IMG/VR virus record: IMGVR_UViG_3300045971_000149
Span: 93,926 to 157,925 of that record
Source: a virus
Length of the DNA stretch: 64,000 nt
Strand: one strand, 5' to 3'
Part shown: positions 7,913-56,221 of the stretch, in pieces
Position numbering within the stretch: position 1 is the first letter of the stretch
Layout of the letters: each line of letters starts with the position of its first letter
Notes under the pieces: generated by a model
What the model was told of the DNA's origin: nothing
What the model saw: only the letters and a program-made list of their open reading frames with translations
Database searches by the model: none
Made by a program: the position numbers and the translations under genes

Positions 7913-8359
7913 ATGGCATGCCGGATATTAATTATGGGCCTTCCGGGCTCGGGTAAAACCACACTTGCAAACTTGCTATCCAAAAGGTTGCAGGCAGATT
8001 GGTTTAATGCTGACGAAGTACGAAAGCAAAATGAAGATTGGGATTTTAGCATTACTGGTAGAATTAGACAAAGTGAACGTATGCGAGCATTATGTGATGC
8101 AAGCACAAAAGAGTTCGCTATTGCTGATTTTGTGTGTCCGTTGCCTGAAATGCGAGAAAACTTTTCAGCACATTGGACAATATGGCTTGACACAATACAA
8201 GAAAGCCGTTATACTGATACTAACAAAGCTTTTAACCCACCTAGTAGCTATGACTTTCGGCTTTCAACCCGAGATGCAGAAATGTGGGCGTTATTCATTT
8301 CAGAATACATATTAGCTATAACAGCAGAAAGATGCGTGATTCGAACATCCGAAGTTTAG
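7913..8359 (+). CDS. Adenylylsulfate-kinase-like P-loop kinase
   Basis: GLPGSGKTT, NADEVR, DFSITGR and DFVCP motifs typical of CysC-like kinases. Confidence 0.75.
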   Translation: MACRILIMGLPGSGKTTLANLLSKRLQADWFNADEVRKQNEDWDFSITGRIRQSERMRALCDASTKEFAIADFVCPLPEMRENFSAHWTIWLDTIQESRYTDTNKAFNPPSSYDFRLSTRDAEMWALFISEYILAITAERCVIRTSEV

Positions 8360-14317: not shown

Positions 14318-15130
14318 ATGTATATGAGCAAGCTTTTAATTACGGGGAACCGGGGGTGGATTGGTAAAAACTTTACCAAACTGTTAGATATTTACAACAT
14401 TCCGTGGGCAGGAGTTGATAGACTGGACGGACATTGGCTTGGGCCAAGTATGAAGGATATTTTGGAGGTAATCGATGAATGTGACATTGTAGTGCATCTT
14501 GCAGCGACTCCTAGAATACCCGCAAGTTGGACTGATTCTAATAGATACCGTGACAATAATGTAGGCGTTACGGATCAACTTGCTCGCATCTGTGCAGAGC
14601 ATCAAAAGCATTTAGTGTTTGCAAGCTCAAGCAGTGTATACGGAGACGGAGAAGGACCACTTAACCCGTACTCTTGGACTAAATTAGCATGCGAGGAAAG
14701 CATCAAAATGCATTCTCGAGGTATGGGCATGCAATACACTATCTTACGTATCTTTACAAACTACGGTGAGGACGATCCTAGCGGGCTTGTTATCAATCGC
14801 TGGATCAATGCATACAAGGGCGGCACTCCTTTACTTCTACGAGGTGATGGTAGCCAAAGTAGAGATTTTATACATGTTAGTGATACTGCTCGTGCATTAA
14901 TGGAAGTATGCATACAACGTCCAATAAATGTTACATTAGATATTGGAACAGGAAAGTCACACTCTTTAAAGAATCTAATTAGCATGTTTCCGTGTGATTA
15001 CACTACTGAACCCGAGTTGCCAGGATATGCACATTCAACAAAAGCTAATTTAGAATACACCCAATCTCATATGGTATGGTCCCCTATCACCCATATAGAT
15101 CATTGGTTATCCTCTCAAATAGTAACATAG
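14318..15130 (+). CDS. NAD-dependent epimerase/dehydratase
   Basis: ITGNRGWIG, HLAA, ASSSSVYG, YSWTK (YxxxK) and RDFIHV. Confidence 0.9.
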   Translation: MYMSKLLITGNRGWIGKNFTKLLDIYNIPWAGVDRLDGHWLGPSMKDILEVIDECDIVVHLAATPRIPASWTDSNRYRDNNVGVTDQLARICAEHQKHLVFASSSSVYGDGEGPLNPYSWTKLACEESIKMHSRGMGMQYTILRIFTNYGEDDPSGLVINRWINAYKGGTPLLLRGDGSQSRDFIHVSDTARALMEVCIQRPINVTLDIGTGKSHSLKNLISMFPCDYTTEPELPGYAHSTKANLEYTQSHMVWSPITHIDHWLSSQIVT

Positions 15131-25069: not shown

Positions 25070-25728
25070 CTATAGTGTAACAGTTAACGCGATTTCTTTA
25101 AAGTTTTTCGCCAGCTTCCTTAATCTCGGTGCCAACTTCTTTGCGATTGATTGCTCATCAAGGCGCTGTCCTAAGTGATACTGTCCGTAAGCTTCTAATG
25201 CTTTAACGATTAATTCTTTTTGCCGAGTATCGATTGTGAGTGTGTATGTGTGATTATTCATATTTAAAACCAGCGGGGGTAATTGTTCTTCTTTGCTTGC
25301 AGCAATCGGTATCTGGTCAAATACGCTAAAAAACCAAATACATCCTTAATTGTAAACAAAAATTTAGATAGCATAGTTTTCATATTTAAACCCTATAGTC
25401 AAAGTTAGACGAGCGAGCACGGTGTTGTCTACGGTCGTATTCATTAAGCCAATATTCAACATCGCATACGTTAGTAGGTTGTTTTTCGGCAATATAAGCG
25501 TCAATGCGTTCTTGTTCAGATACGGGTTTAAAGGCGCTCTTTACTCTTTCTAATAGATTAGATAGCATTTAATAACTCCTGAGGTGATGGTAAACGTTTG
25601 TTTTGGGCTAAAAAGTACTCTACATAGTCAAGCGGAACTGAACGGTATTCAGCACGAACCATACGTAGATAAGTTTCTGGGATCTTTTGTTCTCTTTTTA
25701 AGAGATATTTGGCAAATTTCAATAACAT
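25070..25728 (-). other. Cluster of small hypothetical ORFs
   Basis: ORFs 25070..25261, 25386..25568 and 25558..25728 with RBS/overlaps. Confidence 0.55.
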
Positions 25729-26730: not shown

Positions 26731-28677
26731 ATGGACGTTATTGAAATTAAAACCCTTATTGATATTACTAACACAGAAGTTAGGCGAATCAATCAAGGCA
26801 CCCAAATAGAATTAGATCAGTTTCGCAACTGGACCACATTGTTACAATGTATAGGTATGCGAGCAATCATGACATACGATAAAAACCCAATAAGTAATAC
26901 TGAGAATATTGATAATTTAGGGTTTGGCACAGAATATAAAGGTGTGCATACAGTATGGACTTTTAGATTTCGCCCCGATAGGGAAGGAACATTTGCAGAC
27001 ATTAGTTTATTAAAGGCCGACTTAGATCAAGTTCCTATTATACTAGACCTTTGTGATAGCATAAATCTTACAGAGATAATAAATACTCCAAGGGCAGTGT
27101 TTAATGTATCTGATAAGAAATACATGAACACAGTGGTTAAGGCAATATAGACCGCGACAGTATAAGATAAACAAATTTCCTGGAGATGATTTTATGGCCG
27201 GACCAACAGACATTGAAAAAGAAAACCTTGAAGCACACGTAGAGTTATGTGCCTATCGTTTTCAGCATTTAGATGACCGCCTTACAAAGATCGAAACTAA
27301 AGTAAGCACATTGCAAGATACAATTGAGAAGAGTCATCTTAGTATGATTAAGGTACTAATTGGCACCGCTGGCACAGTAGTTGCAGGTGTGTTATCAACT
27401 CTTGTTGTTATATTAACCAAATAAAAATGAGATTTACTGAGTTTGTAAAAGAAGCAAATGTTCCGCAACCTGTAGGTGGTACAGGTGCAGCTTCGGGAGT
27501 ATCCGGCATGTCCGGTGCAACTACTCAACCGAAAACTGTTACTGCACCAAAACCAGTAACTGCTACCAAACCAATACAACAAGTGACACCTGCAGGACAG
27601 GCTGCACAACCAAGTCAATCGTCGTCTACTGTAGGTACTACAGGCAGCAGTACAGCACCTATTCCCAAGCCCGAAGATCAAATGGGGCAGGAGCCGGCTC
27701 CTGCAGGCCAACCAGTGCAACCTAATACTCAACAGGCACAACCTAACCCACAACAAGATCAGTTACGTAACGATGCCGCGGTAATGGCAAAACGGTTAGG
27801 AATGAATCCTCAACAGACACAGGCATTTACCAATAAAGTTATAGGAACTGGGCAGACTAACGACCCACAAGCTATACAAAAAGCATTGCCAAAGCCGGGC
27901 GAAAAACTTGGGCAAGCAACAGTAATGCAATCACCTGCTGGGTCCAAAGGGATTAAGCTAGATACTAGAAATCAGTTAGGTTATCCTGTAACCGTTGACC
28001 CCCAAGATCTAACGTAATGAAAATACATCAACTTTTAGGTGGACCTTCCATCATCATCACTAATGAAGAACAAACCTTCATTGACCAGCATCATAACGAG
28101 ATCTCAATAGACAACTTACACGATCGTGAAGAAGTAGTGGCTCGTAATCTAGTACGCAAGGGCGTATATGAAATAAGTAATGATAGTAACAGAATCATTC
28201 TTAAAAAAGATGCAAAAAATAAATCCACAATTATTTGAAAAAATAGAACGCCTAGCTAATACAGTTAAACAAGAGTTTAAACAAAAAGGATTAGCGATCC
28301 CACATAAAAACAGAGATGGATCTGTGCAAATGGGAGACTTTATAATTACAAAGCACGATTCGTCATTTTGGATTAGACACGTATTAGGGTACGATGTTGC
28401 GGGCCCTATCAACTTAGCCCAAACAGCGGCTGTGATTGCTAACGATTTAGCATTAGGTCGAGCAGTTGATCTAAAGTTATTAACTAGTGATAAATGGTAC
28501 GGATACAAGGCATTCGATGTACAAGCATGCCAAATTCATGTAGCTAGTGCTCTAAAAAAGAAAGATTACGATAAAGCCGACTATAATATTAGCAGGATTG
28601 ATCTTGCCCAAGAACAGATGCTATACTATAAACGACCTATAGATTCTAGGTTTGCTAAACTAAGAAGTTTAACATAA
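26731..28677 (+). other. Late hypothetical genes (26731..27150, 27194..27424, 27427..28017, 28017..28238, 28210..28677)
   Basis: Contiguous ORFs; 27194 is a coiled coil plus C-terminal TM, 27427 is Q/P/T-rich low complexity. Confidence 0.7.
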
Positions 28678-39914: not shown

Positions 39915-40245
39915 GGTTATTGCTGTACGAAGCAAATAGAAATAAGTGGAACACCCGGGGGCAGTGCCCGGCATCTCCACCATAAGGGAAGTTATGAAAC
40001 ATTTAGAATGGTATCAGATATTGCTGTGTCTTGCAGTTCCGATAAACTATTTTTATTGGTGTGTATTACATAGTTTCTTTATGATGGGGATGACACAGGA
40101 TCGACTTCGCAAAGAGTACATAAGCAGACAGCACGACACAGATAGTCGTAAAAAGTAAAACAAAAACAACCGCAAACGATTCAGTTTACGCATTAGCAGC
40201 TTAACAGCCGCTTAGGGTAGTTATACCTCGTAACAGAAACTAACA
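39915..40245 (+). ncRNA. ssrA: Circularly permuted (two-piece) tmRNA
   Basis: Acceptor piece ends CATCTCC-A-CCA at 39982; coding piece starts GGGGATG at 40086 (G3:U70 pair); tag ANDSVYALAA-stop at 40172-40204; T-loop GGCAGTG; AACAGAA at 40232-40238. Outer ends approximate. Confidence 0.93.
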
Positions 40246-43263: not shown

Positions 43264-43364
43264 GAGAACTCCTTTTGATTATTTATTGGTTAGAATTTGG
43301 TAAAAATATTTCTTGTGTTTTATTAGGTTTTGTCGTATACTGTATACATAACAACAGGAATTTT

Positions 43365-45862
43365 ATGAACACAGATCAAACCATTAACGCTATTAAACAA
43401 TTTTGCAAGGCGAGCAGCAGCGATGAGCAAATTTGGAATGGCAATAAAAGCACATATCATTGGAATATCGGTAAAGTTACATCGATTGGAATAGTAAATG
43501 GTGTAGTGCGAAAGTTAGCGGGTATTGATGTTAGCGGAAAGCAGATTTGGGCAGTCGCGGGCAGTCTTAAGATTATGCCCGACGGTACCATCGCCCGCTT
43601 TACAGGAATGCCAAAAAAGTTCATCTCCGACATTATGAGTAAAGTTGCATTAACTACCGCACCTAAAGAAGTAACGGAGACAGCAGATGTTGTATCTGGG
43701 ATTTAGAATTTCGAATCCTTGGAACAAGGATAGGTTCGAAAACCTATGGAATAAAAGTTGGCTTGTTACAAAACAAAAAGCAATTGAACTCGAAGTTTGC
43801 TATTCCGACGATACTATATTAAACGGAAGTTTCAATGTTACAACAAGAAGTGACCATGCAGGACTACAGATTGCAGTGGGTTTGCTGTTCTATAGATTTG
43901 ACTTTAACTTTTATGACACGCGTCATTGGAATGACAAAACTAACGATTGGGAAAAATACAATGGATGAAAAGTTTGGCCTGTCCACAACGATTCGAGTTT
44001 TATCAGTCTTGGCATTTACAGTATGGATTATTCAAAGTCCATATAGCGGCTGGTGGGTCTCCTTGGCGATATTGATTGCCGGATTATGATCCTAATCGAA
44101 GATAACGGTTTATACTGGTATGTTAATCCACTGTTTCCAGAACAGCATAATATGCTAAGTCCGGTGTTCAATGATAGTGCATTAGCATTACAGTGGCGAG
44201 GACGAGTAGGACACGAAAACTTCGGCGATATTGAAGAACTACAAACTAAATTAACTGCATTACAAAATGGAACAGAAGTGGTACTTCCATCAAGTAAGGG
44301 ACATGCAGAAGCAATGCTACGAGTAGCAAGTTTTTATTTGGATAATTTAAAATGAGTACATATACCCCGGACCGTTGGGTCATGCTTGAAATGACAGCAG
44401 ATGACGGAACCAAACTTAAGAAAGTCCTTGCCTCGTACTACGGTGGCTACGCCGGCAGCGATAGTTGGAAGCTCAGTTCGGGAGTAACCGAAACTAAAGA
44501 GTTTGATAACCGCTATGAGTTTTTGAACTTCAGTGGAAGCACTTACATCTGCTACAAAAAAGCATACGGTATGAGCAACTACACCTCTATGATACTGAGC
44601 GGATGGCAAGAAGAACTACCTAACAAGGTTGAGATATTGGAAAGTTATCAGGAAACTATATGACTGAGCTGTGTGTGCTTACATTGCTTTTTACAAAGCA
44701 TTTCATTGTAGACTTCCCTCTACAACCACGCTATATGTATAGCAATAAGGGCACATACGGGCATCCGGGCGGAGTGCTTCACGCATTCTTGCACTTAGTT
44801 CCTACCTTCGCTATCTTTTGGTTTTTCTTTGATATCGAGACTGCTACCATTATTGCTTGGGCCGATGCGTTAATACATTATCATATTGATTGGGCAAAAA
44901 TGAACATCAATAAGAAAATGGGATGGGGTCCAACTACCCACGAAGAATTTTGGTGGTTGACTGGACTTGATCAATTTTTACATGCGCTAACGTATATTGT
45001 ATTAGTAGCAGGTACAATTGAATGAAAAAATCAATCCGGTTTACTTATTCAATTCCGGAAATGCAACAGTTAACCAACTATTGCGATCCGGATATGGTAA
45101 TTTTTGGAAAGGACTATCCACCAGAAGGTAGTCCGCCGTGGGCCGAAATCAGAGCTAAAACAGAAACATATAGAATGATCGAAGGACAGTGTGTTACTAA
45201 AACAAAGACTGGATACATTATAAAATGAACAATCGAATTGACGAACTTAAAGAAGAATCATTGTTATGGGCAGTAGAAACCCTAGACCCAGATCAGCTAA
45301 ACGAATACGAATGGGGCGTGGCAATTGATAAAAAATTTGCCGAGTTGATTATTCAAGAATGCGCCGACTACATCAACTATCGAACCGACGACTGGGATGC
45401 TAAGTTACGCTGGATATTTAACGACGGATCGGGTTATATGAAAGTAGATGTTGATAGTTTGTTAAACGGACACTTCGGAGTTGAAGAATGAGTATGCACC
45501 TACACCACCCTTCACTGTCAATGGCAGGGAAGAAAAAGGGCAAGGTAAAATTCCGCAATGCCGAAGAAGCGCGAAAGGCGCGCGAGCTCGATGAGAGTTG
45601 GAAACAACTACAAAAGAAATATGTTGCCAAAATCAATGTGAGTAGTACAAACGCAAAGTTTGACGACCTATCAATTCCCGAAGGTCGTAATACTACTGCT
45701 CATATTAAGAGCAAAGTTACCGAAGGCGGTACTGCTACATTGCAACCTGCTAAAGTTTACACTGGGGATAAGATGTTAGGAATTGGGCAATTGCACAAAA
45801 GCAATGCGGTACCTGTTTTTAGCTCAGACGAAGTTGTAAATATAGCCAGGATGCGTCGATAA
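43365..45862 (+). other. Array of small accessory ORFs
   Basis: Coupled ORFs at 43365, 43687, 44352, 44660, 45022, 45225 and 45488. Confidence 0.7.
44660..45025 (+). CDS. DUF3307-like membrane protein
   Basis: KHFIVDFPLQ, H...H, HYHID and DQFLH. Confidence 0.7.
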   Translation: MTELCVLTLLFTKHFIVDFPLQPRYMYSNKGTYGHPGGVLHAFLHLVPTFAIFWFFFDIETATIIAWADALIHYHIDWAKMNINKKMGWGPTTHEEFWWLTGLDQFLHALTYIVLVAGTIE

Positions 45863-47413: not shown

Positions 47414-47798
47414 AATAACATTAATCACACCGCCTGACATATACGAGAATTCGAACTTCAGTATTTTGTTCTTAGGGCTTAGTGAGACTGATCAAGATGA
47501 TGCAAGTCTCTGGTTAGGACAAAACGAAGGCTATCCGGAAACAAACTTTTACTACTACCAAGGTGAAGATAATTTGACTTGGTTGCTGTATGCATTAAAT
47601 AGAGCAGATGTAAAGTTCTTGAACTTCGACACAGATAGTGCTATAATTAATTTACTCGGCAGTTATATTCTAGGACGCCCGAATGTGTATTATAGCACAA
47701 AAGACCCTAGCATACAAGAACTGATGTCTCATATCAATAACCAATTTGTGCCCGATGTACAAACATTTTTAAAGAGAGCATTTAATGGAAAAGAATAA
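47403..47798 (+). CDS. Hypothetical protein
   Basis: 131-aa coupled ORF (LITPPD). Confidence 0.7.
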   Translation: MSNKITLITPPDIYENSNFSILFLGLSETDQDDASLWLGQNEGYPETNFYYYQGEDNLTWLLYALNRADVKFLNFDTDSAIINLLGSYILGRPNVYYSTKDPSIQELMSHINNQFVPDVQTFLKRAFNGKE

Positions 47799-49035
47799 GA
47801 ACGACGATCACCAATGTAGTTTTTGTGGAAAACACAAGGAAGACGTTGAAAAAATGATTGTTGGAGACGGCGCTGCAATCTGCAATGATTGTGTAGATCT
47901 ATGTACTAATATATTAGACGATAAAAAGGTAAAAGACTTTCCGTCTAAGGGTGATAAAAAGCAATTTAATCCCACAAAAATTAAAGACTTCCTTGACGAA
48001 TATGTTATCGGACAAGAGCGAGCAAAGATTGCGTTAAGTGTGGGAGTTGCTCAACACTTTAAGCGTGTGTTTAGTCCATCCAAGGATATTAAACTTGAAA
48101 AGACAAATGTGCTTATGCTCGGCCCTACAGGATGCGGCAAGACAATGATGGCAAAGAAGGTTGCAGAATTTCTCGATCTGCCGTTTGCAGTTTGCGATGC
48201 AACAGGGCTAACTGAAGCAGGATATGTCGGCGACGATGTAGAAAGTATTCTTATTCGATTGTTAGCAGTAGCTGACGGCGATGTAGAACGTGCAGAACAC
48301 GGTATTGTTTACGTCGATGAAATTGATAAGATTGCTCGTAAGGGCGAAAATATGAGTATCACCCGTGATGTGAGCGGTGAAGGTGTACAACAAGCATTGT
48401 TGAAAATTATCGAAGGCACAATTGCCCGGGTACCTGCAGGCGATAAGCGTAAGCATCCTAAGGGCGATATGATTGAAATTGACACTTCAAACATTTTGTT
48501 CATTTGTGGCGGCGCATTTGTGGGCTTAGATAAGCAAATTGCAAATCGCAAGGATGCAAACAGTATCGGCTTCCATACTCCTGCAAAGAAGAAAGACAAA
48601 TCAGAGAGCAGCTATCTAGACGACTTTACTACAAAGGATCTTATTAGCTTTGGACTTATTCCCGAGTTTGTGGGGCGCTTTGGACTTACAGTAAACGTTA
48701 ACGAACTAAGCGTCGAAGATTTAATGCAGATTCTTAAAGAACCTAAGAATAGCATTATCCAGCAGTACCAGTATATTTTTAAGTTAGACGGTGTTGAATT
48801 GAAGTTTGAAGATGAAGCACTTCGTGTTATTGCAGAAAAAGCAAAAGAACTTAAAACTAACGCACGTGGCCTAAAACAAATCATCGAAAAGATGTTGTTA
48901 AATTATCAATTTGAAGCGATGGACCTTGCAGAGCGCGGGTTAGAGCGAATTGTGATAACCAAGGATACAGCCCAAGGAGGCAAAGCTGTTTTAATTTTTA
49001 ATAAAGAGCATGGCAAAAAATCCGAACAGTCCTAA
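47785..49035 (+). CDS. clpX: ATP-dependent Clp protease ATPase ClpX
   Basis: C4 zinc domain, [34 protein letters not shown] and IGF loop. Confidence 0.96.
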
Positions 49036-49252
49036 GCTTACTGGACTTAAAGTAGAAGTAGGCGACGCTAATATTAGCGTTGCCCTGCGTAAGCTAAAAC
49101 AAAAAGTAGAAGATGCTGGTCTCCTGTTGGATGTTCAGAAACATGAATTTTACGAAAAGCCCACAACAGAACGTAAGCGTAAAAAAGGTGCTGCAAAAGC
49201 CCGTCTAAAAAAACAACTACGCGATCAACAATTACCTCCAAAGCTATATTGA
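49010..49252 (+). CDS. rpsU: Ribosomal protein bS21
   Basis: ALRKLKQK...HEFYEKPTTERKRKK. Confidence 0.9.
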   Translation: MAKNPNSPKLTGLKVEVGDANISVALRKLKQKVEDAGLLLDVQKHEFYEKPTTERKRKKGAAKARLKKQLRDQQLPPKLY

Positions 49253-49276
49253 AATATTGTAGTTTTGTGTTATACT
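49249..49276 (+). promoter_or_regulatory. Sigma70-type promoter for the tRNA
   Basis: TTGAAA...TGT-TATACT, 8 nt before the tRNA. Confidence 0.65.
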
Positions 49277-49284
49277 GTATATAT

Positions 49285-49360
49285 GCGGTATTAGCTCAGT
49301 GGTTAGAGCGTGGACTTCTAAACTCCCGGGTCGAGAGTTCGATTCTCTCATATCGCACCA
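49285..49360 (+). tRNA. tRNA with CUA anticodon (putative amber suppressor)
   Basis: 76 nt; acceptor GCGGTAT/ATATCGC, D arm GCTC/GAGC, anticodon loop TT-CTA-AA, T arm GAGAG-TTCGATT-CTCTC, encoded CCA. The anticodon stem has two mismatches. Confidence 0.85.
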
Positions 49361-49373
49361 ACAGGATAACATT

Positions 49374-49760
49374 ATGCAAAGAGGAAACAGAAACGTTATG
49401 AACGCAATTAAAATGAAACGTCTAGAGCTTCTAGACATTGTTCGTGCAAACAAAGAAAAGCACATTGCAGAATACGTAGAAGCTGTCATTGATTATAAAC
49501 AACTTGTAATTAAAGTAGCCGAAGCTAATTCTAAAATCGCAAACGATAATACTACTATTAAGAATTTTAAACATTGGCCAACAACTCCGGAATCTTTTGA
49601 AGATAGCTACAAACGAGCGATTCGTATGTTAGAACTATCCATTGAAGACGTAATCGAAGTTGAAGAAGATATATTCAACCAACTAGTACTCGATGAATGG
49701 TCGTGGAAGCGCCAATTTGTCGGAAGCACAACTTCTTACAAGACCGGCTTGGGATTCTAA
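49374..49760 (+). CDS. Hypothetical protein
   Basis: AGGA RBS; 128 aa (PESFEDSYKRAIRMLE). Confidence 0.7.
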   Translation: MQRGNRNVMNAIKMKRLELLDIVRANKEKHIAEYVEAVIDYKQLVIKVAEANSKIANDNTTIKNFKHWPTTPESFEDSYKRAIRMLELSIEDVIEVEEDIFNQLVLDEWSWKRQFVGSTTSYKTGLGF

Positions 49761-51019: not shown

Positions 51020-51805
51020 ATGAAAGCCAAAACTTATCGCTCTATTTTTATCTCTGATGTACATTTAGGTACAAGGGACTGTAAAGCAGAACAACTAAAC
51101 AACTTCCTCAAACATAACTCCTGCGAAACGCTATATATGGTAGGCGATATTATAGATGCATGGCGTATTCAGCAAAACAAGTGGCGCTGGAAGCAAAGTC
51201 ATACAAATGTTGTCCGACGTGTGTTAGGACATGCAAAGCGTGGTACTCGCGTAGTCTATATAGCAGGCAATCACGACGAATTTCTAAGACCCATGATACC
51301 ATATGGGTTTTCTTTTGGGCATGTCGAAATTTGTAATCAAATAGAGCATATTGGTGCAGACGGCAAGCATTACCTAGTAGTGCATGGAGATTTATTTGAT
51401 GGAATAACACGATTAGCTCCTTGGCTTGCGTTCCTTGGGGATAAAGCATATGATTTTATCCTAAATCTAAATGGCAAGTTTAACTGGTTTCGCCACAAGA
51501 TGGGATTCGGGTATTGGTCACTAAGTAAATATCTCAAAGCGCGAGTTAAGAAAGCTGTAGACTTTATGTTTAAGTTTGAACAGAATTTAGCAGACTACTG
51601 TAAGAAGCGCGGATTTGACGGCATAATCTGCGGGCACATACACCACGCTGAAATTAAAGAAATTGACGGTATTACATATATGAACGACGGTGATTGGGTA
51701 GAATCAATGACTGCATTAGTAGAACATCACAACGGACGTTGGGAGATAATACATTGGACACAGGCAAGCGATGAAACAAAAGACGATACTGATAATAACA
51801 GATAA
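51020..51805 (+). CDS. Metallophosphoesterase, PlcP/LpxH-like
   Basis: SDVHLG, GDIID, GNHD, HGD, GHIH and NDGDWVES. Confidence 0.9.
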   Translation: MKAKTYRSIFISDVHLGTRDCKAEQLNNFLKHNSCETLYMVGDIIDAWRIQQNKWRWKQSHTNVVRRVLGHAKRGTRVVYIAGNHDEFLRPMIPYGFSFGHVEICNQIEHIGADGKHYLVVHGDLFDGITRLAPWLAFLGDKAYDFILNLNGKFNWFRHKMGFGYWSLSKYLKARVKKAVDFMFKFEQNLADYCKKRGFDGIICGHIHHAEIKEIDGITYMNDGDWVESMTALVEHHNGRWEIIHWTQASDETKDDTDNNR

Positions 51806-52775
51806 TTTACCGGACCAAATAAATGGCGTTGTCACGACTTACAAAAACATTGAGATTTGCGCGACTCGTGATAATTATAACGTTGTGGTGCTTCATCCCG
51901 GGTGGTTCAGCTATGTTGATTGCCCTCGCTACAACGAAGTCAAGATTACCTATCCGCGGCAGATGGGCAAGAAGATTGCGGAGATCGATCCGGATTATAT
52001 CCATATCGCCACAGAAGGTCCTCTTGGTATGTGGGCTAGAAAGTATCTTTCACTATATAATATTAGGCACAATACCGCTTATCATACTAAATTCCCTGAA
52101 GGGCTAAAAGCACTATTCGGAATACCGGAATCTATTACTTGGAAGTTTGTTCGTTGGTTCCACAAGCATAGCGGCAAGGTACTTACTACTACAGACTCAA
52201 TGGTTAAAGAATTGCAAGCCCACGGGTTTGATGGGGATATTATTCCTTGGACACGCGGAGTCGATAGAAGCATATTTTATCCCGACCATGCTCTTAACAA
52301 GCAGGTAACATTAGTATGTGTTAGCCGCGTAAGCAAAGAAAAGAATTTAGAAGATTTCTTTGAGTTGGACTATCCGGGCGCACGTAAGATTATGGTCGGT
52401 GACGGACCAATGCGAGCAGCATACGAAAAGAAATATCCGGATGTGGAATTCGTAGGTTTTAAAATTGGTGCAGATTTAGCAGAATATTACAGATTGGCAG
52501 ATGTGTTTGTATTCCCATCACGTTGGGAAACATTTGGCATTGTAATGATTGAAGCAATGGCGTGCGGCACGCCAGTTGCCGCTTATCCGTGTCAAGGTCC
52601 TGAAGATGTTATTGATGAAGGTGTCACCGGATGTATGGACGAAGACTTAACATCGGCAGTTAAAAGCGCCATACAGTTAGATAGACAAACTGTGTTAAAC
52701 GGTAGTATGCGTTGGAGTTGGGAAAATGCTTGGAAAATATTCCGCGATAATCTGATTGACTGTCGAAGCAGATAG
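51771..52775 (+). CDS. GT4 glycosyltransferase (Agt-like)
   Basis: QINGVVTT, HIATEGPLG, YHTKFPE, SRVSKEKN and ETFGIVMIEAMACGTPV. Confidence 0.92.
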   Translation: MKQKTILIITDNLPDQINGVVTTYKNIEICATRDNYNVVVLHPGWFSYVDCPRYNEVKITYPRQMGKKIAEIDPDYIHIATEGPLGMWARKYLSLYNIRHNTAYHTKFPEGLKALFGIPESITWKFVRWFHKHSGKVLTTTDSMVKELQAHGFDGDIIPWTRGVDRSIFYPDHALNKQVTLVCVSRVSKEKNLEDFFELDYPGARKIMVGDGPMRAAYEKKYPDVEFVGFKIGADLAEYYRLADVFVFPSRWETFGIVMIEAMACGTPVAAYPCQGPEDVIDEGVTGCMDEDLTSAVKSAIQLDRQTVLNGSMRWSWENAWKIFRDNLIDCRSR

Positions 52776-52979
52776 TGCTATACTAAATACATCATGCAAA
52801 TGTAGATCATCAACCATTTAACAATGCCCGAGCTGTGTAGCGAGCAATCGCTTACGTTTGGGCTTTCTTTTGATTGGAGGAAATATGTAGATTCATATTA
52901 ACGGCCCTCCTTAAGTGGATTACACTTTTCAAGTCAGTAATCAAATTTCCAAACACTTAACATCAGGAGAAATCAAATG
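52756..52979 (+). promoter_or_regulatory. Promoter and structured attenuator-like leader with two ATG-TAG uORFs
   Basis: TTGACT-N17-TATACT; uORFs at 52794 and 52885; terminator-like and RBS-masking hairpins. Confidence 0.7.
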
Positions 52980-53300
52980 GAAAACCAATTTAACATCACT
53001 AAAGAACAATACCTTACTATGCTTTCAACTTGGAGAGCAAAGAAGGCGCACGATGCAGCGGATCAAATCCTCTACAACATCTTGCGAACAAAGCCTGCAG
53101 ATAGGGGCTTTACTGCAAAGGGTAAAAACATACAAGGAAACGATCCTTGGTTCGCGTACCACAATGCGTTGTTCCTTGCTCGTAATCGCGTGAGAATTAC
53201 AAGTTCCGGACTGGAAGCACGTAAAGAAGCGTTTAAGAAAACTTTCGGATTCGATGCTCCCGACGATATCGCAGCAAAGTTAGAAGGAGCAAAGAAATGA
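52977..53300 (+). CDS. Hypothetical protein
   Basis: AGGAG RBS; ILYNILRTKP..RGF; ATGA-coupled to the Pth2-like gene. Confidence 0.75.
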   Translation: MENQFNITKEQYLTMLSTWRAKKAHDAADQILYNILRTKPADRGFTAKGKNIQGNDPWFAYHNALFLARNRVRITSSGLEARKEAFKKTFGFDAPDDIAAKLEGAKK

Positions 53301-53602
53301 ACCCGTACATGTATTTGTTCGTTCGAAGCGACTTGTCGGCACCGCAACAGATTGTTCAAACTGCACATGCTGTAGACGAGATAGGAATGCGTTACAAATC
53401 CGATGGTACTAATTACATGGTATTGTGTGGAGCAACTAACGAAGAACACCTGCTCACAATTGCAGAATGTTTGGACAAAAACGAGATCGATTACGAAATG
53501 TTCTTTGAGCCAGATATCGGTGCGCACACTGCGATTGCAACTCGCCCATTAAGAGGCACTGAGAGAGCACCGTTAAAGAAGTTTCGGCTAAAGACGGCTT
53601 GA
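53297..53602 (+). CDS. Peptidyl-tRNA hydrolase 2 (Pth2)-like protein
   Basis: YLFVRSDL...QIVQTAHA...VL...FFEPDI...TAIATRP matches the Pth2 pattern. Confidence 0.8.
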   Translation: MNPYMYLFVRSDLSAPQQIVQTAHAVDEIGMRYKSDGTNYMVLCGATNEEHLLTIAECLDKNEIDYEMFFEPDIGAHTAIATRPLRGTERAPLKKFRLKTA

Positions 53603-54168: not shown

Positions 54169-55194
54169 ATGACTAAGAAATATGATACCCTCGTCCTAAT
54201 CGGACGCTTTCAACCATTCCACTCGGCACACTTACTGCTGGTTCAACGTGCTACTGCACTTGCCAAAAATGTTGTGTTTATTGTGGGCTCAGCAAATCAA
54301 CCGCGTACTTATAAGAATCCATTTTCTTTCGCAGAGCGAAAGGTTATGATCTACGAAGCAACCCGCGGAATGGCAGGAACACTTTCGTTTCACACCGAGC
54401 CAAACCCTGATAGTCTGTATAACGATCAAGCATGGGCCGTTCGTGTTCAAGCAGCAGTCGCAAAGCATACTAAGCCTGGCGACAAGATTGGCATTATCGG
54501 ACACAAGAAAGACCCTTCAAGTTTCTACTTAGATATGTTTCCGCAATGGGAATTTGAATCAGTAGAACTATTAGAACCGCTCGATGCAACTGACATTCGA
54601 GACTTGTATTTCAGGTGTGATGTGAATATGAACTTCATTAAGAATGTTGTTCCACCGTCCACATTCGATATACTGAATTACTTTAAGGACACAAAGGACT
54701 ACGAGCAGATCATCAAGGAACGTGCATTTATTGCACATTACAAAAAGCAATACGAGTCGCTGCCCTACCCGCCAATCTTTAGCACTGCCGATGCTGTGGT
54801 TATCCAAAGCGGTCACGTACTGATGGTGAAGCGTCGTGCAGAACCCGGTAAAGGACTATGGGCATTGCCCGGGGGCTATGTGAATGCAAATACTGACCGC
54901 ACTGTTGAAGATGCTATGCTGCGTGAGCTGCGTGAAGAAACGATGATTAAGGTTCCTGCTCCGGTCCTCCGTGGCAGCATTGTACGAAGTAAGGTTTTTG
55001 ATGCAATTGACCGTAGCCCACGAGGACGGATCATTACACATGCATTCTTTATCAAATTGTCCGACGGTGAACTGCCAAAGGTTAAAGGTGCCGATGATGC
55101 TGAAAAGGCAAAGTGGGTTCCTATTGCAAGTGTAAAGAGCGAAGAATGCTTCGAAGACCACTACGAAATTCTACAACACTTTTTAGGAGCGTAA
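54169..55194 (+). CDS. nadM: Bifunctional NMN adenylyltransferase / Nudix ADP-ribose hydrolase
   Basis: IGRFQPFHSAH, KNPFSFAER and Nudix box GGYV...RELREET. Confidence 0.93.
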   Translation: MTKKYDTLVLIGRFQPFHSAHLLLVQRATALAKNVVFIVGSANQPRTYKNPFSFAERKVMIYEATRGMAGTLSFHTEPNPDSLYNDQAWAVRVQAAVAKHTKPGDKIGIIGHKKDPSSFYLDMFPQWEFESVELLEPLDATDIRDLYFRCDVNMNFIKNVVPPSTFDILNYFKDTKDYEQIIKERAFIAHYKKQYESLPYPPIFSTADAVVIQSGHVLMVKRRAEPGKGLWALPGGYVNANTDRTVEDAMLRELREETMIKVPAPVLRGSIVRSKVFDAIDRSPRGRIITHAFFIKLSDGELPKVKGADDAEKAKWVPIASVKSEECFEDHYEILQHFLGA

Positions 55195-55603
55195 TATGAT
55201 TGCACAAGGATACGAACAATACTCAAAGTATGTTGAAGATCGCAAACAGAATGAGCACATTGCCGAAGACCTAACACGGCTCCGCGATGAGTTGGTTGCG
55301 ACAGCATTTAACGACAAGGGTGCACTGATTGACCCAACGTTAGCTGTGGTTGTTTACAAAATTAATAGTTGCTTATTTAGGGGTTATCCCCGGAGGACAG
55401 AATAATGGTACGCATTGTAAAAATTGAACCTCACCCAACTGTGGTGAAAGAAGTCGTGTGTAAGGGTTGTGGTGCAACGTTGGAATATGTTCCAAACGAA
55501 GTGCAAACCCGGACATGGATGGATTACGGTGGCGACAACAATGTCGTGAAGTATATTTCTTGCCCAAATTGTGGTAACGAAGTAATAACAAAGGAGTATT
55601 AAA

Positions 55604-56221
55604 ATGGAATGGTTTACATGGACACCTTTAGAACTTGCGGCAAACGTAATGACCGCAGTTTGTATTTTTCTGGCAGGGCGCAATAACGTACATACTTGGT
55701 GGACGGGTATTGTTGCATGTGGATTGTTTGGCTGGTTGTTCTATACATCACAACTGTATGCTGATGTAACGCTGCAAGTGTTCTTCATTGCTACTAGTTT
55801 CATTGGATGGTGGAATTGGGCGAACAAAAATATCCCAATGGATGTGTCCACAGCCGGCGATGGTTCGGAACTACAGGATAAAATAGAATCAATGAAGGTA
55901 GCATATGCCGGATGGTCTACCGTAGTTACTATGGCAGGAATTGCTATTGTAGTTGCTGCTGGATACGGCTGGATGCTACACAAATACACTAATGCGTATG
56001 CGCCGTGGATTGACTCAACTGTACTCACATTCAGTGTTATTGCTCAACTGTTGCTAATGCGTCGTAATGTAGAAAATTGGCCACTGTGGGTGCTAGTGAA
56101 CACATTAAGTGTACCGCTGTACTGGAGCCGAGGACTGTATATGACATCTGCACTGTACGCAGTGTTTTGGGTAAACGCATTGTGGTCGTGGAAGACTTGG
56201 GTTAATTTGGCAAAGAAGTAA
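55604..56221 (+). CDS. pnuC: Nicotinamide riboside transporter PnuC
   Basis: Multi-TM; LYAD..LQ, GWWNW, DS...SVIAQLL...ENW..W. Confidence 0.9.
   Translation: MEWFTWTPLELAANVMTAVCIFLAGRNNVHTWWTGIVACGLFGWLFYTSQLYADVTLQVFFIATSFIGWWNWANKNIPMDVSTAGDGSELQDKIESMKVAYAGWSTVVTMAGIAIVVAAGYGWMLHKYTNAYAPWIDSTVLTFSVIAQLLLMRRNVENWPLWVLVNTLSVPLYWSRGLYMTSALYAVFWVNALWSWKTWVNLAKK

Follow-up and report, generated by a model that had tools for sequence, protein, structure and literature searches.

Phages that use the standard genetic code have repeatedly been found to encode suppressor tRNAs, so that the bare finding of a further gene of this kind is not new. For the jumbo phage XacN1, 18 amber stops were read through in silico and no target emerged (PMC5852040), while the paper on RsoM2USA only speculates on suppressor targets, of which many would be possible (PMC8504454), and that on Atu_ph07 likewise only speculates on its suppressor tRNA. 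Borges et al. regard suppressor tRNAs in standard-code phages as forerunners of recoding (bioRxiv 10.1101/2021.08.26.457843). The case described here is a stretch of 64,000 nucleotides (the window), i.e. positions 93,926 to 157,925 of the IMG/VR virus record IMGVR_UViG_3300045971_000149, which carries a gene for a tRNA with the amber anticodon CUA and, farther downstream, an operon of the gene p107 and a gene for a Pth2-like protein. Judging from comparative sequence analysis, we consider it rather probable that this tRNA is an amber suppressor that acts as a key to the p107/Pth2-like operon and not as a recoding tool. A literature search revealed no paper that links suppressor tRNAs with PTH2 genes, and a gate from a tRNA to a PTH2 gene appears to be undescribed in the literature.

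The window is the final 64 kb of a 157,925-bp record (G000) with a CheckV completeness of 44%. The genomes used for comparison include its close relative G006 (353,233 bp, 99% complete), G007 (92% complete) and G008, a third lineage that is 61% identical in the Pth2-like protein. The phage is a myovirus, whose large terminase is nearest to that of the Pseudomonas jumbo phage PA5oct (53% identity), followed by those of the Sinorhizobium phage Phosso (49%) and the Rak2-like phages GAP32 and CBB (about 44%). A megablast search of the region against the INPHARED phages gave no near match, and an exact-match search of IMG/VR with the body of the tRNA remained without a match. The locus is contained in DNA sequencing runs from two pond metagenomes, from which the window possibly stems; no RNA run is among those listed as containing it.

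A tRNA with the amber anticodon in a phage with the standard code

ARAGORN made a single tRNA call in the window, on the plus strand and with cta at position 34, and the same gene scores 58.3 bits against the Rfam family RF00005 (gathering score 29, E 5e-10, span 49285-49357). It has the architecture of a class I elongator tRNA with stems of 7, 4, 5 and 5 bp, G18 and G19, the T-loop GTTCRA, U33 and a purine at position 37. Its anticodon loop reads U33, C34 U35 A36, A37, A38. The preliminary description, which had placed CUA at positions 34-36 between U33 and A37 and had noted an encoded CCA, thus agrees with the sequence and with both programs, and the ARAGORN check that it proposed returned no Arg(UCU) call for this tRNA. 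The promoter that it ascribed to the gene was also recovered. Since this promoter stops 8 nt 5' of the tRNA, the 5' leader of the transcript is very short; in the relatives, a TATACT -10 element likewise lies just upstream of the tRNA.

The label "tRNA-Pyl" that ARAGORN attaches to the gene stems from the anticodon alone. Pyl-type tRNAs have a 6-bp anticodon stem, a 3-nt variable loop and a small D-loop without G18 G19, and go along with pyl genes. A Pyl identity was rejected on architecture, as the window tRNA has a 5-nt variable loop, G18 G19 and ordinary stem lengths. Among the sense tRNAs of the genomes that carry it, none comes closer to the CUA tRNA than 72-74% identity, and in view of this lack of a close sense parent no amino acid was assigned. 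By analogy with E. coli, the combination of U35 and A73 would suggest Lys or Gln as default.

The gene belongs to a family. To collect its members, the 128-aa protein encoded directly behind the tRNA served as a handle, which recovered about 100 related IMG/VR loci, and 22 distinct CUA-family tRNAs were aligned (alignment A4). Among cultured phages, BLAST with the "tRNA-Sup" of XacN1 detected members in XacN1 (two copies), Xoo-sp13, GAP32, CBB and Phosso; the copy in GAP32 is annotated as "Sup-tRNA" and that in CBB as "tRNA-Pyl CTA". The window tRNA shares the defining features of the family, i.e. a loop YUCUAAA/C and G1-C72. Members of different lineages are only 68-75% identical, and U33-CUA-A37 is nevertheless invariant in 22/22. 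In A4, 91% of the cells pair, and in 18 of the 21 pairs both partners have changed, a value that was reached by none of 500 shuffles (slid controls gave about 40%). The window tRNA is real and under selection.

The anticodon stem of the window tRNA consists of U27.C43, G-C, G-C, A-U and C31.C39 and hence of merely three Watson-Crick pairs. Both mismatches had been noted in the preliminary description, where it was concluded that suppression may be weak or tuned, and the family supports this view. Position 31.39 is non-standard in 15 of the 22 members (mostly C.A) and 27.43 in eight, while the three pairs in between are paired in all 22 and covary. A 31.39 mismatch occurs in 14/18 CUA tRNAs versus 7/190 sense tRNAs of the same phages (Fisher p 1.5e-13, uncorrected for kinship). 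As 31.39 is unpaired in 15/22, the mismatches are a conserved family trait and not decay. Most members have A39 C40; the window tRNA has C39 U40, and its 31.39 pair is thus C.C in place of the common C.A. By analogy with classical studies of su7 and its anticodon arm, such mismatches may lower or tune suppression. The open 31.39 pair probably tunes it, such that ordinary UAG stops are spared.

Across the relatives, the 128-aa gene is the sole syntenic neighbour of the tRNA slot. A CUA tRNA stands immediately 5' of it in eight of the first 21 loci and in 15/80 loci of a wider scan that re-samples many contigs of the first 21, and lies nearby in four more. On the tree of the 128-aa protein, loci with a CUA tRNA are dispersed, with at least seven changes of state, which indicates that the CUA tRNA is old and was often lost or replaced. 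In one subclade, the slot is occupied by a class-II tRNA with the anticodon GGA and U73 (L002:5890-5982, L004:5891-5980, L008:5899-5989, L009:5890-5983), which ARAGORN calls Ser; the two copies scanned with Rfam, those of L004 and L008, stay below the gathering score, and in one case the acceptor stem has 8 bp. In XacN1, the two tRNA-Sup copies stand in tandem (L124:36047-36205) and are identical in the D, anticodon and T arms. Their acceptor stems differ, as do their discriminators (A73 versus G73), and the copies may accept different amino acids. The CUA-family tRNA of G008 (L168:19544-19619, minus strand) has the loop UUCUAAC and an acceptor stem identical to that of the CUA tRNA of L065. 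Its open 31.39 pair permits a shift in register, owing to which ARAGORN mislabels it as Arg(tct), and surveys based on ARAGORN may therefore undercount the family.

The phage uses the standard code and is not recoded. Among 231 genes that cover 90% of the G000 record, 147 end in TAA, 69 in TGA and 15 in TAG; for the 449 genes of G006 the numbers are 323, 100 and 26. TAG is hence the rarest stop (6-7% of gene ends in G000, 5.8% in G006), and its share reaches up to 13% in carriers of the CUA tRNA. Treating TAG as sense did not lengthen the long open reading frames (ORFs) of G000 and gave a coding coverage of 0.869 for G006, as opposed to 0.883 under code 11; the fragments G001-G005 behave like G000 and G006. 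The census, the TAG-as-sense reading and the relatives are thus in accord with the initial statements that few genes of the window end in TAG, as the listed ones do (Table 1), and that this is not a code-15 genome. No convincing TAG-split gene was found in G000 and no TAG-interrupted structural gene in G000 or the relatives checked. Five weak candidates for TAG-interrupted genes in G000 all resolved into overlaps or adjacent genes of a cassette. The C-terminal extensions past TAG show no coding signal (median 8 codons, no orthologue that crosses the TAG) and are as long as those after TAA or TGA; nor is there an enrichment of back-up stops behind TAG (median 9 codons versus 8 and 5). Neither the RF-1 family (PF00472) nor GlnRS/GluRS (PF00749) has a match in G000-G004, all of which are fragments; G006 was not searched. 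Since G000 is only 44% complete, the statement that the phage is not recoded rests on what is visible of it, genes for terminase, sheath and fibres among them, and on G006 with its completeness of 99%, which carries the same transfer-messenger RNA (tmRNA) tag as G000, 48 sense tRNAs and one CUA tRNA.

UAG codons ahead of and within Pth2-like genes

As a target of the tRNA, the preliminary description had singled out the leader of the Pth2-like gene. The encoded protein falls into a divergent subfamily, which was aligned across phages (alignment A5). It scores 19.9 bits against the Pfam family PTH2 (PF01981) with a cut-off of 23, while its homologues from XacN1 and Xoo-sp13, 44% identical to the window protein, exceed the cut-off with 27.2 and 31.6 bits, respectively; it is through these homologues that the window protein is putatively assigned to the family. 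The gene is preceded by p107 and a leader with two upstream ORFs (uORFs), both of which contain an early TAG (Table 1). If the TAG of uORF1 is read, its frame stays open for 31 more codons across the terminator-like hairpin up to the TAA at 52899-52901. uORF2 consists of ATG TAG, six sense codons that end with Pro-Pro, and TAA. It is the sole intergenic ATG-TAG led by a Shine-Dalgarno (SD) sequence in G000, and the same holds for its counterpart in G006. Genome-wide, SD-led TAG mini-ORFs are not enriched, and neither is ATG-TAG.

Leader, p107 and Pth2-like gene form a cassette that is conserved between G000 and G006, with unrelated sequence on both flanks. Identity amounts to 39% just upstream, 54% in the terminator hairpin, and 85% and 76% in the coding sequences, while the blocks around the two uORFs are unchanged (Table 1). 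In the diverged hairpin of G006, the GCCC/GGGC stem ends and the T-run are retained, and the read-through frame of uORF1 is open across it and leads in frame into uORF2; the resulting peptide differs. The leader of G008 likewise presents a uORF of this design, with CAA ATG TAG and a Pro-Pro-TAA end but a different sequence, ahead of a p107 homologue and about 90 nt downstream of a CUA-family tRNA. A helix that hides the SD sequence by pairing with the Pro-Pro-stop region appears in the minimum free energy (MFE) folds of G000, G006 and G008, with a different helix sequence in G008. The leader hence has the anatomy of an attenuator, in that the uORFs overlap the terminator and the SD-hiding helix and are kept in relatives, and it may regulate the genes behind it.

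In other lineages, the UAG is located in the Pth2-like gene itself. The third codon is TAG in XacN1 and the fourth in Xoo-sp13, each behind a good Shine-Dalgarno sequence; TAG is also the fourth codon in GAP32 and CBB, where the gene lies 3-4 kb from the CUA tRNA. In the Pth2-like gene of G008 (L166:5001-5297), codon 54 is an in-frame TAG that falls within conserved sequence and aligns to a Thr in the window protein and to a sense codon elsewhere; a gene caller would split or truncate the gene at this codon. A third PTH2-like copy of Phosso (L125 / W02:281222-281488) has a TAG-A 14 codons upstream of the domain, in frame with a possible TTG start. The nucleotide A follows all ten putative gate TAGs, as opposed to 17 of 59 TAGs at gene ends, and UAG-A is known from classical work as a context that favours amber suppression. 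As a negative control, G007 encodes 28 tRNAs, none of them with CUA, and its Pth2-like gene has no TAG; the Arg(tct) tRNA of G007 is a regular UCU tRNA. The earlier proposal of a regulatory tRNA with the Pth2 leader as target is thus supported by leader conservation, the architecture of G008, the UAGs of the orthologues and G007, which together point to a link between tRNA and operon.

Table 1. Positions of the features in the 64,000-nt window. SD, Shine-Dalgarno sequence; aa, amino acids.
Feature	Position	Strand	Remarks
Sigma-70-type promoter of the tRNA, TTGAAA-16-TATACT, extended -10 TG	49249-49276	+	10/12 match
tRNA, anticodon CUA (49318-49320)	49285-49360	+	76 nt, class I, A73, encoded CCA; ARAGORN, Rfam
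Conserved 128-aa protein, phrog_34511	49374-49760	+	starts 14 nt after tRNA
Leader promoter TTGACT-17-TATACT, TG	52756-52784	+	G006 equivalent TTGACT-17-TATAAT, surroundings unrelated
uORF1 ATG CAA ATG TAG, near-leaderless	52794-52805	+	17/17 nt block identical in G006
Terminator-like hairpin GCCC...GGGC + T-run, candidate attenuator	52826-52871	+	-27.2 kcal/mol, z -2.4
SD GGAGG + uORF2 (uORF2 52885-52914)	52876-52914	+	35/35 nt block identical in G006
SD-sequestering hairpin, uORF2 Pro-Pro-stop with p107 AGGAG (52965-52969)	52906-52970	+	MFE fold
p107, phrog_22448	52977-53300	+	85% nt identical in G006, 44% aa in G008
Pth2-like gene, divergent PTH2 subfamily	53297-53602	+	overlaps p107 stop via ATGA
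TAG-ended genes of the window	7913-8359, 14318-15130, 25070-25261 (-), 26731-27150, 43275-43706, 51771-52775		stop census
Permuted two-piece tmRNA	39921-40204	+	Rfam 96 bits
ClpX homologue (416 aa), then bS21 gene	47785-49252	+	just 5' of tRNA; bS21 Pfam 55 bits
NAD salvage genes	54169-56221	+	NMN adenylyltransferase-Nudix fusion (341 aa), PnuC-like transporter

Proposed mode of action and alternative explanations

A plausible course of events would start with the production of the tRNA(CUA) from its sigma-70-type promoter and its charging, presumably by host enzymes. As long as suppression is absent, ribosomes would halt at the TAGs, i.e. at the fourth codon of uORF1 and the second of uORF2, so that the terminator hairpin could form and the hairpin over the ribosome-binding site of p107 would stay closed. 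With suppression, read-through of uORF1 may carry ribosomes over the terminator and prevent termination, while uORF2 would be read up to its Pro-Pro-stop on the anti-SD arm, which may free the start of p107. A Pro-Pro-stop ending is a known site of slow termination. The Pth2-like gene would then be translated after p107 by coupling through the ATGA overlap. In the other lineages, the UAG within the Pth2-like reading frame itself would take the place of the leader. The open 31.39 pair might keep suppression low; ordinary UAG stops would thereby be spared and need no back-up stops, in line with the lack of enrichment described above.

The connection of a tRNA-hydrolase-like enzyme with a suppressor invites the guess of a loop in which the state of the tRNA pool is sensed or fed back. 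Conceivably, jumbo phages have long kept a self-referential circuit. Production of the Pth2-like enzyme would then depend on expression and charging of the phage tRNA(CUA) and on its acceptance by the ribosome; the enzyme would in turn hydrolyse tRNA esters, perhaps including those of the suppressor, and the two together would sense or balance the integrity of the tRNA pool during infection. In the window phage, the sensor would have moved out of the reading frame of the enzyme into a leader with two stages, anti-termination and the unmasking of the SD sequence. Such a circuit could, for example, detect a host attack on tRNAs or cap suppression. In this full form the idea is tentative and rather doubtful.

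Several points weigh against a tRNA that unlocks the operon. All tests of the connection between tRNA and target are computational, and the full leader cassette is known from only three genomes, with G000 and G006 closely related to each other. A degenerate pattern of the leader retrieved only G006 from IMG/VR and nothing from the JGI metagenome contigs. ATG-TAG could be a plain start-stop element that works without suppression, and in G008, where an ATG directly follows the TAG, re-initiation could take place instead of read-through. The frame of uORF1 would be open across the terminator by accident with a chance of about 1 in 5 per genome. Many relatives with a CUA tRNA are fragments without a visible gene of the Pth2-like subfamily, and in XacN1 the tRNA and the putatively gated gene are about 200 kb apart. 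The co-occurrence of tRNA and UAG derives from few independent lineages and one negative control, the Phosso copy is ambiguous as an amber gate, and the canonical PTH2 genes of G001, G002, XacN1, Xoo-sp13, Phosso, GAP32 and CBB contain no early TAG.

The tRNA might instead be a global modifier of translation that reads UAG stops of host and phage at large, thus disturbing the host or countering its defence, possibly together with the phage tmRNA, ClpX, S21 and the Pth2-like protein. An early-type tRNA promoter and the clustering of the genes for ClpX, bS21, permuted tmRNA and Pth2-like protein near the tRNA would fit this explanation, and according to the papers on XacN1 and RsoM2USA there could be many targets. 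However, the gene ends speak another language, with no conserved or coding-like C-terminal extension, no enrichment of back-up stops, and no outcome from the in-silico read-through of 18 amber stops by the authors of the XacN1 paper. Furthermore, the weakened anticodon stem would argue against strong suppression. We therefore regard a global effect as unlikely.

Decidedly unlikely is a way-station to recoding, i.e. a low-GC phage with few TAG stops that gained the suppressor before any in-frame TAGs, as in the model of Borges et al. This published model, for which phages that combine the standard code with a suppressor tRNA have been reported to be potential precursors, would accommodate the position of TAG as rarest stop in both G000 and G006. 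Yet a transitional state is difficult to reconcile with the age of the family, whose lineages have diverged to 68-75% identity and are scattered on the tree of the neighbouring gene, and with cultured jumbo carriers from different hosts. All are standard-code, and among carriers TAG still accounts for up to 13% of gene ends. No structural gene has an in-frame TAG, the RF-1 and GlnRS/GluRS families had no match in the fragments G000-G004, and the conserved UAGs are confined to one operon. That the gene is not a suppressor at all, and instead a decayed or mis-registered tRNA (e.g. Arg-UCU) or a tRNA-shaped signal for mRNA processing, is very improbable: the scarcity of Watson-Crick pairs in the anticodon stem, the Arg(tct) call for the G008 member and the odd class-II GGA, Leu or Met tRNAs in the slot of other relatives are outweighed by the placement of CUA at 34-36 by two programs, the invariant U33-CUA-A37 and covarying stems in 22 members with the three core anticodon-stem pairs intact throughout, and the poor pairing of the window tRNA in the UCU register.

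Genomic surroundings and comparison with known systems

The 128-aa gene is probably co-transcribed with the tRNA. Its product shows high conservation (about 30 invariant residues), and in many relatives a tRNA gene stands directly ahead of it. As it belongs to no Pfam family and its AF2 model (pLDDT 84) has no PDB match at E<=0.001, nothing links the protein to the tRNA. The genes for ClpX, bS21, tmRNA and Pth2-like protein make up a translation-related cluster. The tag of the tmRNA, ANDSVYALAA, is identical in G006, and permuted tmRNAs are also found near the CUA tRNAs of L011 and L015. Behind the Pth2-like gene follow NAD salvage genes, among which the NMN adenylyltransferase-Nudix fusion is about 71-74% conserved in G003 and G004.

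If the tRNA indeed opens the operon, the suppressor tRNAs of XacN1, RsoM2USA, GAP32 and CBB, long recorded without a target, would receive a function, and a natural tRNA would be used as a dedicated translational switch. Read-through at gene ends would then have found nothing because the relevant UAGs occur where genes begin and in leaders, which are dropped by gene callers. Annotators should also be warned that gated genes may be called too short or missed and that ARAGORN may label members of the tRNA family as tRNA-Pyl or Arg(UCU).

The closest known systems are the cultured jumbo phages XacN1, RsoM2USA, GAP32, CBB and Phosso, which likewise combine a class I CUA tRNA with the standard code. 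The cultured members of the family have the loop CUCUAAA or UUCUAAA, in most cases followed by A39 C40, as well as G1-C72 and mostly A73; XacN1 and Xoo-sp13 share C31.A39 and the 27.43 mismatch. By their large terminases, the cultured jumbo carriers are related to the window phage with 44-53% identity. Whereas in XacN1, Xoo-sp13, GAP32 and CBB the UAG stands at codon 3-4 of the Pth2-like gene, the UAGs of the window phage are found in leader mini-ORFs. The window hence adds a variant in which the putative UAG lock is part of a two-stage leader and not of the reading frame of the enzyme.

Code-15 phages, i.e. crAss-like, Lak and other phages that reassign TAG to Gln, have the same kind of phage tRNA(CUA) in a host that presumably uses the standard code, and share the idea that suppression times gene expression. 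Unlike these, the window phage shows neither widespread in-frame TAG nor the gain in coding density under code 15, and its UAGs of interest are located in one operon. A second group of related systems are leader attenuators and stalling switches such as trpL, ermCL, the cat/cmlA leaders, SecM and Pro-Pro stalling. Like attenuators, the window leader comprises a short uORF, a terminator hairpin and an SD-sequestering hairpin that would be set by the position of the ribosome. In contrast to them, it would sense suppressor activity at UAG and not amino-acid supply or an antibiotic.

In synthetic E. coli circuits, genes with an early amber codon were expressed only in the presence of a suppressor tRNA, which gave sharper control (PMC7969014; PMC13276491). 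These circuits were engineered, whereas the window system would be a natural and conserved phage version. Finally, the laboratory suppressors supE, supF and su7 of E. coli arose from sense tRNAs by point mutation, and their anticodon stems are regular. They share with the window tRNA the anticodon CUA and A36-A37-A38, the motif for modification by MiaA. The loop CUCUAAA of most family members is identical to that of su7 or supF; the window tRNA has U32. Unlike supE, supF and su7, the CUA tRNAs of the jumbo phages form a natural family with an open 31.39 pair and no close sense parent in the same genomes.
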